DNA from: an uncultured Gemmatimonadota bacterium
GTDB taxonomy: Bacteria > JAAXHH01
Direction of reading: 5' to 3'
Length of the DNA: 64,000 nucleotides
NCBI GenBank assembly: GCA_951812955.1
Contig: OX638340.1
Span: forward strand, 1,184,001-1,248,000
In this document: in pieces, positions 28,019-29,506 of the stretch
How positions within the stretch are numbered: the first letter of the stretch is position 1
Layout: each line of letters begins with the position of its first letter
Notes under the pieces: generated by a model
What the model saw: the letters and a program-made list of their open reading frames with translations, nothing else
Told to the model about the DNA's origin: nothing
Database searches by the model: none
Translations under genes and position numbers: made by a program

Positions 28019-28056
28019 GCGGCCGATCACCTTTGCTGGGGTTGAATTCCACTGCG

Positions 28057-29409
28057 TCAAGTGTGTGGATCTGTTTCGACCTGTCGGGAATCCACCTTGG
28101 TCTGATCAGTATCATCACTACTATCTATTGGTGGAGGCGGTGGAATCCACTTGCGCAAATTTTGTCCAACCCTGTCATAGAAGCCCGGTATTGCTTTCTC
28201 CAGCTGGTCTATAAAAGTCGACCTGCCTGAAAAACGACCTCCAGGATCAGTGATTATAGCAACTTCAAAATAAGTCAAGTTGACGTCTGGCTGGTCGATT
28301 TCAAGGCAGGCCGGATCGGCTTGTACTTTGGTTAGTACCGCCTGCGTGGATAGATTCCGCCTGGACCAGAAAGTACGAATAAAGATATCACTTGTCTTCG
28401 TGTCGGGTAGTTGCCGGAGAAGCCAGTTTATCTTGGATCGAGAACGCTTCCTGTCACCAGGAGCCTGCAGTCTCATCGAACACGAGATTGTTCTTCTTTG
28501 AAGATTTACAGCTACTTCCAAATCGCTGGCTGCATTGGGGATGTCAAAACCTGATCTCAGTTCGTAGGCGCCAACAAGATCATCGCAAGCTTCCTGAAAA
28601 CGTAGCGCCGTGTTACTACGATGTTTACGTGGCAGGCGGATGTCAACCCGTTTGCCAATCTGGCGAGTCAGAATCAAGCAGACGTCTCTTTCTTCCTGGT
28701 GCCAGCTCGCTACTGTGTATTCTACTTCCGGTGATGTTTTTTTAAAACTTTCTCCTCGTTTGATTCCCGAAACCAGGGATTGCCATTCTCGATTCATCTT
28801 ATCGAATCGTTTGACGCCGGAGTTGACATGTTCGAAATACCGCACCATTTCTTCCAGTATAAATCGCTGTTCCGGACTTAAGTCTTCACTGTCCTTCAGT
28901 GTCAGCATGGCTTGAGTGCGAATGCTTGTCCAGGAAATGTGGTAGAATTCGATTTTCCTGCTTAAAGGCTTTGGAATAGAGTATGGAATATGAGTTGGTA
29001 GTGGAACCAGTTGATTCGACAAAGTGATTACCGCATTGAGCCCGAAATTCTGCGCCGCCTTGCCATATCTCAAGACCTGATCACCATCAATCTCCGAATT
29101 GCCAACTTTCGCCTCGAAAAGGGCTGACCAACGGACTTTGCTACGATTCCTCAGAATCAACAGGCCATCCGGTCTGTCGTTCTGTTTGGCGTTTGGATTT
29201 GGCAAACTTACTTCTGTGAAACTGTCCACTATGGACATTTTCCCCACTCTGACACCGCAACTTTCCAGAAGGTTTGCGGTAAATGGTCGCACCGACCCTA
29301 AAACGGCCAGCAGAATGGATACCAATCGCATCTCCTGGCTGGATCTTGCCACGTTCGGGATCAATCTCGCACTGTTGGCCTTGTTCAGGACGTCATCCAG
29401 GGAACTCAT
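28057..29409 (-). CDS. Hypothetical 450-aa protein with an N-terminal PD-(D/E)xK nuclease-like motif, in a low-GC islet
   Basis: The motif …RPDGLLILRNRSKVRWSALFEAKVG… gives a D…(E)xK arrangement. The gene is ~47% GC, against ~65% in the flanks. Confidence 0.5.
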   Translation of the reverse strand: MSSLDDVLNKANSARLIPNVARSSQEMRLVSILLAVLGSVRPFTANLLESCGVRVGKMSIVDSFTEVSLPNPNAKQNDRPDGLLILRNRSKVRWSALFEAKVGNSEIDGDQVLRYGKAAQNFGLNAVITLSNQLVPLPTHIPYSIPKPLSRKIEFYHISWTSIRTQAMLTLKDSEDLSPEQRFILEEMVRYFEHVNSGVKRFDKMNREWQSLVSGIKRGESFKKTSPEVEYTVASWHQEERDVCLILTRQIGKRVDIRLPRKHRSNTALRFQEACDDLVGAYELRSGFDIPNAASDLEVAVNLQRRTISCSMRLQAPGDRKRSRSKINWLLRQLPDTKTSDIFIRTFWSRRNLSTQAVLTKVQADPACLEIDQPDVNLTYFEVAIITDPGGRFSGRSTFIDQLEKAIPGFYDRVGQNLRKWIPPPPPIDSSDDTDQTKVDSRQVETDPHT

Positions 29410-29506
29410 TCCGTCTCCTAGATTAAGCGGAATTACTATAGAGTTTACTTTGTATTGTAATTACACATCGATAAGATAATCCGCCTGTGGGTATATCCCA
29501 CAAATT

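Follow-up and report, generated by a model that had tools for sequence, protein, structure and literature searches.

A one-gene, low-GC islet between tatC and a TonB receptor gene of an uncultured Gemmatimonadota bacterium encodes a predicted PD-(D/E)xK nuclease of a large unnamed family

The DNA analysed here (the window) is a stretch of 64,000 nucleotides from an uncultured, sponge-associated Gemmatimonadota bacterium (assembly GCA_951812955.1, contig OX638340.1, positions 1,184,001 to 1,248,000), and our subject is a solitary gene on its minus strand, located between a TonB-dependent receptor gene and tatC (28057-29409) and encoding a protein of 450 amino acids (aa). Comparison of the genomes indicates that the gene is accessory and exchangeable, yet under strong purifying selection, and that its family, which is large and has as yet no name, moves between phyla as a one-gene unit. 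By fold and motifs, the N-terminal domain of its product is modelled as a member of the PD-(D/E)xK superfamily, for which nuclease activity is predicted. We class the protein with those nuclease effectors of conflict systems that consist of a single protein; its large family is uncharacterised. With moderate confidence, we favour the reading that it is a stand-alone conflict (defence) nuclease, directed against mobile elements or phages, in which the non-catalytic half would restrain or license the PD-(D/E)xK domain.

The AlphaFold model of the protein, built with a 52-sequence alignment, reached a predicted local distance difference test score (pLDDT) of 86.9 and a predicted template-modelling score (pTM) of 0.80, and an identical protein is held in public assemblies (P0001/P0272). 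The nuclease domain (approximately residues 20-175; 28885-29352, minus strand) contains the alpha-beta-beta-beta-alpha-beta core fold of the superfamily. A preliminary description of this DNA had reported a D...ExK motif in the N-terminal third, and it was located there as R79-P80-D81-G-L-L-I-L and A-L-F-E99-A-K101-V-G; the signature is fuller than described, however, and reads E26...D81...ExK...QxxxY. In the model, D81 stands directly before strand 82-87 (strand 2) and E99-A-K101 at the end of strand 93-100 (strand 3). The first core helix carries E26, and Q111xxxY115 falls within the helix that follows strand 3. The corresponding codons are 29332-29334 (E26), 29167-29169 (D81), 29113-29115 (E99), 29107-29109 (K101), 29077-29079 (Q111) and 29065-29067 (Y115). 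Across 69 sequences, down to 26% identity, E26, D81, E99, K101 and Y115 were invariant, and E66, R79, P80, G82 and Q111 were conserved in at least 90%, and this family-wide conservation indicates that the predicted metal-binding and catalytic set (E26, D81, E99, K101, Q111, Y115) is complete and maintained by selection. The best Foldseek matches were EcoT38I (E 5e-4), MspJI and McrC, with the nuclease core alone matching at a TM score of about 0.2; among the solved structures, Foldseek found none with the whole architecture of nuclease and secretion-chaperone-like domain. Searches of Pfam, NCBIfam and PADLOC (E up to 10) and of PHROGs (E up to 1) gave no meaningful match to the protein, and the same was true of the PDB sequences, whether a single sequence or the family profile was used. 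The suggestion that the gene is of an undescribed type thus agrees with the lack of a match to any described defence or protein family.

The C-terminal two thirds had been called featureless, and this did not hold. A helical linker (residues 176-266; 28612-28884, minus strand), with an invariant W209 and a W236-H237-Q238-E-E-R-D motif, is followed by an alpha/beta domain with a secretion-chaperone/YbjN/DUF1054-like fold (residues 267-413; 28171-28611, minus strand), and the nuclease domain, the linker and the chaperone-like domain are packed as one globule in the model. Behind the globule lies a W-x-P-P-P-P-x-I-[DE]-x-x-D motif (residues 421-433; 28111-28149, minus strand); among close relatives no other segment is conserved as well. 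In the 52-sequence alignment W421, P425 and I428 did not vary, and P423 and P426 hardly did. A disordered tail without conservation closes the protein (28060-28110, minus strand), and pLDDT stays below 50 from residue 432 on. In the sponge-type proteins the motif near the C-terminus reads W-x-P-P-P-P-x-I-[DE]-K-x-D-P. One family member, P0131, has a C-terminal GYF_2 domain, a fold that binds proline-rich peptides, and together with the proline motif this hints at a motif-domain interaction. Apart from this one GYF_2, the longer family members have no extra Pfam domain, their remainder being disordered tails.

Conservation is nearly uniform across the domains. Mean pairwise identity of the C-terminal domain was 0.62 against 0.63 for the nuclease domain among close relatives, and 0.29 against 0.39 family-wide, and a hypervariable sensor domain was therefore rejected. 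Against the orthologue in the related genome L007 the ratio of non-synonymous to synonymous divergence (dN/dS) was 0.07, and the gene is under strong purifying selection over its full length.

The composition of the islet bears out its foreign origin. Positions 28019-29506 have a guanine plus cytosine (GC) content of 0.475, and the window averages 0.594 (standard deviation 0.04 in same-size windows), in line with the fall to about 47% that had been noticed between the TonB receptor and tatC. Windows of the same size with equally low GC amounted to 2.9%, and the remaining ones all lay within a second island at 34-38 kb. The drop affects chiefly the third codon positions, where the gene has a GC content (GC3) of 0.49 and the host genes around it have 0.69-0.80; relative to the neighbouring core genes it is lower by 0.26-0.31. 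The islet was also correctly described as holding a single gene, since one 450-aa open reading frame (ORF) was found in it, with its ATG at 29407-29409 and its stop codon at 28057-28059. Furthermore, the view that it is an acquired islet agrees with the absence of the gene from two relatives with near-identical TatC, and the gene is solitary as stated, without a conserved neighbour or a hidden small ORF. The preliminary description would have given up its reading had the protein lacked similarity to nuclease folds or possessed a housekeeping ortholog set at host-like GC; such similarity was found, and no such set.

On the downstream side, the gene converges with a TonB-dependent receptor gene (936-aa ORF, 25208-28018, plus strand; Pfam Plug and barrel), the second of a tandem pair (the other at 22370-25174), and the two stop codons are separated by 38 bp (28019-28056). 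On the upstream side, tatC (418-aa ORF, 29507-30763, minus strand; Pfam) is separated from the gene by an AT-rich spacer of 97 bp (29410-29506, minus strand), which contains an AGGAGA ribosome-binding site (RBS), placed 6 nt ahead of the ATG, and a hairpin with a 6-bp stem at 29487-29503, just past the tatC stop. This spacer is not kept in relatives: when the upstream regions of the window's lineage were aligned, the RBS alone was conserved. A scan of the spacers for sigma-70 promoters and terminators gave nothing above shuffled sequences. The low-GC, non-conserved tract reaches into tatC as well and takes in some 200-280 nt of its 3' end, where the last ~90 aa of an acidic disordered tail are encoded (29507-29784, minus strand); this part cannot be aligned with the closest relatives and thus co-varies with the islet. 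The tail belongs to a ~190-aa acidic, low-complexity C-terminal extension of TatC (29507-30040), whose last ~90 aa are wholly different between genomes with 95-99% identical TatC cores. Both slippage-driven drift and exchange as part of the transferred segment were considered for this divergence. A functional link to tatC was rejected, as the adjacency is limited to one Gemmatimonadota lineage.

A homologue lies straight downstream of tatC in six related genomes (L001, L007-L010 and L048). A metagenome scan with the TatC core added two sites that lack the nuclease gene (for the provenance of the metagenome accessions, see PMC5099237). In the Petrosia ficiformis metagenome LXNJ (L081; TatC 97.6% identical) 39 bp separate the stop of tatC from that of the TonB receptor, and in the Aplysina aerophoba metagenome MKWU (L088; TatC 98.8% identical) an extra TonB receptor is present instead. 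Between the window and the empty site homology breaks at about 29784 and about 28022, and comparison of the filled and the empty site gave no target-site duplication. Where the site is filled, the divergence of the nuclease is out of step with that of its flanks. Against L048, the flanking genes have a synonymous divergence (dS) of 0.15-0.21 while the nuclease is saturated (proportion of synonymous differences, pS, 0.81; dN 0.25), and against L007 the flanks have a dS of 0.37-0.47 and the nuclease 1.43. The L048 allele resembles another subgroup (P0014-like) within flanks that are 94-95% identical to the window, and it is split by an IS3-family insertion sequence (IS) at 10690-11951 of that locus (orfA of 103 aa and rve integrase of 270 aa). 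The split reading frame is otherwise intact, which indicates that the insertion is recent. Thus, within a narrow clade of sponge symbionts, the tatC/TonB site is found empty, filled, with a replaced allele, IS-disrupted or with other cargo, and the gene is accessory and exchangeable. The junction behaves as a recombination hotspot. A third TonB-dependent receptor gene (901-935 aa, high GC) occurs there with or without the nuclease gene (L007, 11572-14277; L088, 4350-7157), and the extra 2.7 kb between nuclease and TonB receptor in L007 proved to be merely this receptor. A 140-bp relic of the 3' end of a TonB receptor was also seen in L007 (11397-11536).

The family is large. An exhaustive profile search gave 1,890 clusters at 50% identity, 645 of them at E <= 1e-30 and nearly all full length (430-500 aa), while a word-indexed search gave 428 full-length homologues. 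The best 120 homologues, at least 52% identical, were named just 'hypothetical' and came from Gemmatimonadota, Defluviicoccus, Gammaproteobacteria and Nitrospinae metagenome-assembled genomes (MAGs). A scan of one genome per species yielded 61 loci, many in sponge bins. They include unclassified 'bacterium' MAGs syntenic with the window (Gemmatimonadota lineage), Binatia, Alpha- and Gammaproteobacteria, Vicinamibacterales, Holophagales, Terriglobia, Latescibacterota and 'delta' MAGs. Among the carriers in culture are Halomonas stenophila, Halomonas sp. AOP13-D3-9, Mesorhizobium sp. M1378 and Phytoactinopolyspora alkaliphila. Nearly all genomes have one copy. No homologue was detected in phage genomes (tblastn) or IMG/VR viral contigs. 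Plasmid relatives were solely proteins of ~660-715 aa from Rhodococcus and Streptomyces, in which an N-terminal TerD domain of ~190 aa precedes the whole module (26-28% identity, ~90% coverage) and all catalytic residues are retained. These are annotated as 'TerD family protein', with the UniRef name 'Stress response protein'.

No companion travels with the gene. Among 55 loci no partner gene was conserved, and shared neighbours were confined to lineage-specific synteny groups; no conserved small ORF was found within 500 bp of either side in 56 loci, and Rfam gave nothing but sub-threshold noise on the islet. In 52 of 54 loci the gene is poorer in GC than its flanks (mean difference -0.089), and in 41 of 45 its GC3 is lower than that of the neighbours (mean -0.14); ameliorated copies occur in a few high-GC lineages. 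Copies from different phyla can be 82-88% identical in nucleotides, for example between Binatia and Alphaproteobacteria or between Alphaproteobacteria and Vicinamibacterales, with Acidobacteriota among the groups involved, and upstream this similarity ends between -2 and -90, while downstream it does not go beyond +71. Over all pairs, the ends of shared homology vary from -2 to -411 upstream and from -23 to +195 downstream. One Kaistiaceae genome carries two 99%-identical units of 1,540 bp (-44 to +71) in unrelated contexts, a 'delta' contig of 13 kb holds two or three gene copies, and three Vicinamibacterales species have in common a 98-99% identical unit with rearranged surroundings. The shared flanks resemble an RBS and 5' untranslated region (5'UTR), in which one subgroup conserves a hairpin, and a terminator hairpin. 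The gene has crossed phylum boundaries as a promoter-gene-terminator unit. Searches at the gene for terminal inverted or direct repeats gave chance-level matches only, and the ends of the duplicated Kaistiaceae units were unrelated, with no inverted repeats and no target-site duplication. In a gammaproteobacterial subgroup (L029, L032, L034 and L062), ~150 nt upstream of the gene are conserved, with a GGGG...CCCC stem-loop ~30-55 nt 5' of the start codon and just before the RBS. This region may be a regulatory 5'UTR, and it is missing in the window's lineage. In two genomes, the nuclease homologue lies between inverted copies of a FrsA-like peptidase_S9 gene (L015, 8396-9571 and 11522-12697; L056, 8400-9575 and 11520-12695), and only the downstream copy is present in the related genomes L003, L013 and L024.

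A defence or toxin role is suggested by circumstantial evidence, namely the TerD fusions in plasmid variable regions and a defence island in Mesorhizobium. The TerD-fused copy of Rhodococcus pRZP3 lies beside a type II cyclic-oligonucleotide-based antiphage signalling system (CBASS; cyclase, E1-E2, JAB, NucC) and a RES toxin, another RES module adjoins the copy on a second Rhodococcus plasmid, one Streptomyces copy has a polymorphic-toxin gene ~5.5 kb away, and a further Streptomyces copy is near MazG, radical-SAM and dTMP-kinase genes. For TerD itself, a role in sensing nucleotide derivatives within conflict systems has been proposed (PMC7159879). The Mesorhizobium copy is located between a PDC-S19 candidate and an MkoA/MkoC-like helicase, one metagenomic copy is the first gene after an integrase, and the Halomonas stenophila copy adjoins an MvaT-type silencer and an IS21 element. 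In the window, a HEC-01A-like ATPase and DUF4276 pair lies 6.5-8.5 kb from the nuclease gene. If the protein is a stand-alone defence nuclease, its C-terminal half would hold the nuclease away from the host chromosome, and cutting would be licensed only on cue, through dimerisation control as in FokI-type enzymes or through binding of a ligand or peptide. In the TerD-fused relatives, a ligand-sensing module would have been added to the same effector. Upon activation, invading DNA might be cleaved, or abortive infection might follow.

Several observations weigh against this defence reading. Most copies in sponge symbionts stand alone between housekeeping genes. The 150 immediate neighbours in 40 mostly sponge-symbiont loci were mostly metabolic and transport genes, each defence-related PADLOC family matched just 1-3 of the 150, and several transposases were present too, so that enrichment in defence islands is weak in sponge symbionts. 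No PADLOC model matches the nuclease, and literature searches on TerD-nuclease fusions and on nuclease families of sponge symbionts turned up no account of the family. The even conservation of the C-terminal domain fits poorly with a fast-evolving sensor of phage proteins. Finally, while the fold, the active site and the architecture, like the solitary and accessory state, the spread and the selection, were read from the data, gating is purely what we infer, as are the trigger and the target.

The position of the sponge-symbiont copies among housekeeping genes keeps a selfish mobile gene alive as the main alternative, although we consider it unlikely. Here the nuclease would drive its own spread and persist without benefit to the host, either by homing-like cutting of empty sites and repair from the filled allele or by illegitimate recombination of the Rpn/YhgA type. 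That the transferred unit is essentially the gene alone, highly similar across phyla in unrelated contexts, would fit this well, as would the duplicated Kaistiaceae units, the multiple copies on the 13-kb contig, the existence of gene fragments and of an IS-split copy, and the filled/empty polymorphism and allele replacement at the window's site. Moreover, no vehicle is evident, given the lack of phage or viral carriers and the distant, TerD-fused nature of the plasmid copies. However, neither the window nor the duplicated units have terminal inverted repeats or a target-site duplication, the ends of homology vary by pair and resemble a promoter/5'UTR and a terminator rather than recombination ends, the upstream DNA is unconserved even among syntenic relatives, the insertion sites share no common sequence, and one copy per genome is the rule. 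Purifying selection over the full length, the non-nuclease half included, would equally be expected of a host-beneficial gene. The stricter proposal of an autonomous element, in which the nuclease itself drives integration or homing of the ~1.5-kb promoter-gene-terminator unit, would explain both its spread in sponge microbiomes without transposon ends and the allele replacement at fixed sites. If true, this would add a new type to the bacterial mobile elements, one without recombinase, transposase ends or vehicle; we regard the proposal as unlikely.

Other explanations leave the gene with a host function or a partner. As a special case of defence, the protein could be a modification-dependent (type IV-like) or substrate-restricted restriction enzyme, which would cut only foreign-modified or structured DNA and would thus need no gating. 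A solitary nuclease with no methyltransferase nearby fits such an enzyme, which is nonetheless quite unlikely: the protein showed no SRA, winged-helix or YTH/EVE domain and no further known reader of modified bases, no DNA-reading role is known for its secretion-chaperone-like C-terminal fold, Pfam Mrr_cat and similar profiles did not match even at E = 10, and similarity is limited to the generic nuclease core. An overlooked toxin-antitoxin or addiction module, with a small ORF, an RNA or an internal C-terminal fragment (cf. Rpn/RpnS) as antitoxin, is very unlikely in our judgement. A lone nuclease should endanger its carrier, two Rhodococcus copies adjoin RES toxin modules, and the protein has in-frame internal methionines, of which M205 and M312 are invariant and M188 is conserved in at least 90% of the sequences. 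Nevertheless, the putative internal initiation has no clear RBS, the flanks of the 56 loci hold no conserved small ORF, and no Rfam match was obtained in an islet whose spacers measure merely 97 and 38 bp. The smallest chance is given to a host DNA-repair or recombination nuclease (RecB/Cas4/NucS-like) of odd composition. Strong and even conservation along the protein and retention at the same site in six related genomes would be in its favour. In contrast, the gene is missing from relatives with 98-99% identical TatC and IS-disrupted in one whose flanks are nearly those of the window, its alleles diverge far more than their flanks, and its distribution is patchy across phyla, with near-identical DNA in distant taxa. 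The empty sites and the composition, with its low GC3, contradict a housekeeping repair nuclease.

Two further loci deserve mention in their own right. In the window, tRNA-SeC (34162-34259), right after selB (32085-34088), opens the second low-GC island (34162-38100, GC 0.37-0.50). This island encodes a 170-aa protein from an unassigned ORF (34478-34990, minus strand), a DUF4276 protein (35883-36566, minus strand) and an AAA_21/AAA_15 ATPase (36718-37863, minus strand) that matches the PADLOC HEC-01A (E 1.8e-49) and AriA-like models. The last two look like a candidate ATPase and Toprim-like defence pair. In L001, a phage-type integrase occupies the equivalent place. In Halomonas stenophila, an operon downstream of the nuclease homologue (L073, 14089-20604) encodes a 1,245-aa DUF3584 (SMC/JetC-like) protein together with 216-aa, 421-aa and DUF7281 proteins. 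It resembles a Wadjet/Mks-type system, and no PADLOC model matched it.

If the defence reading is true, the family would represent a widespread single-gene system, with ~1,900 clusters spread over no fewer than eight named groups of phylum or class rank, Actinomycetota among them. It would also provide a case of nuclease control by a secretion-chaperone-like domain, a pairing new to solved structures and listed systems, and the natural TerD-fused versions would point to ligand control. The family is directly testable because its hosts include culturable Halomonas, Mesorhizobium, Rhodococcus and Streptomyces. Whatever the function, the locus offers a clean natural example of how a lone gene is transferred horizontally and its alleles turn over in sponge symbionts, and population-level study can draw on one intergenic site that occurs filled, empty, replaced and IS-disrupted.

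The gene was also compared with known mobile and addiction systems. It has neither the conserved ends nor the target-site duplication of an insertion sequence or transposon, and neither the adjacent partner nor the conserved neighbour or small ORF of a type II toxin-antitoxin module. With respect to integron cassettes, 38 bp follow the gene and no array or integrase was found; attC was judged by eye, no attC model being run. In PADLOC-DB v2 (5,027 models) there were zero matches to the window protein or its TerD-fused relatives. As for the nucleases, ~115-125 residues align at 8-13% identity with AF1548/1y88, EcoT38I, the cleavage domains of FokI and BspD6I, MspJI/AspBHI and McrC. Unlike the restriction endonucleases compared, the window protein has its nuclease domain at the N-terminus and the chaperone-like domain after it, with no recognisable domain for DNA recognition or modification reading and no methyltransferase partner. 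For the type IV/Mrr-like enzymes, no Mrr_cat profile in Pfam, NCBIfam or PADLOC matched, and the non-nuclease half is secretion-chaperone-like. The protein differs from Can2, Card1, Cap4 and Shedu SduA in lacking CARF, SAVED and DUF4263 and in the fold of its regulatory half: with Card1 and Can2 only the nuclease domain aligns and no CARF profile matched, the neighbour scans gave no cas or CRISPR-associated family among the shared or commonest matches, and no DUF4263 or NERD match of the Shedu/NERD kind was obtained in Pfam or PADLOC at E up to 10.

The RecB/Cas4-like subgroup is marked by QxxxY after strand 3 and a Glu on helix 1. Both motifs are present in the family, with Q111 conserved in at least 90% of the sequences and Y115 and E26 invariant, and no PDDEXK_1 or Cas4 match in Pfam (E up to 10) and no four-Cys cluster in the alignment were found. 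The Rpn/YhgA-like nucleases are likewise solitary, combine an N-terminal PD-(D/E)xK domain with a C-terminal regulatory part, are horizontally spread, sometimes with several copies per genome, and have been linked to DNA transfer and phage defence. The window protein gave no match to PF04754 (Transposase_31) even at E = 10, and it is larger (450 versus ~300 aa) with another C-terminal fold. That fold is shared, at 4-12% identity, with the type III secretion system chaperones Spa15/SicP/SycN/CesT, with YbjN/AmyR, with YktB/DUF1054 and with the PF0168-like 1yb3, which are small, stand-alone proteins, peptide-binding or of unknown function, and none of them is fused to a nuclease. The TerD-fused homologues are of the same family and differ by the extra TerD domain, by their location on plasmids and by their association with variable and defence regions.

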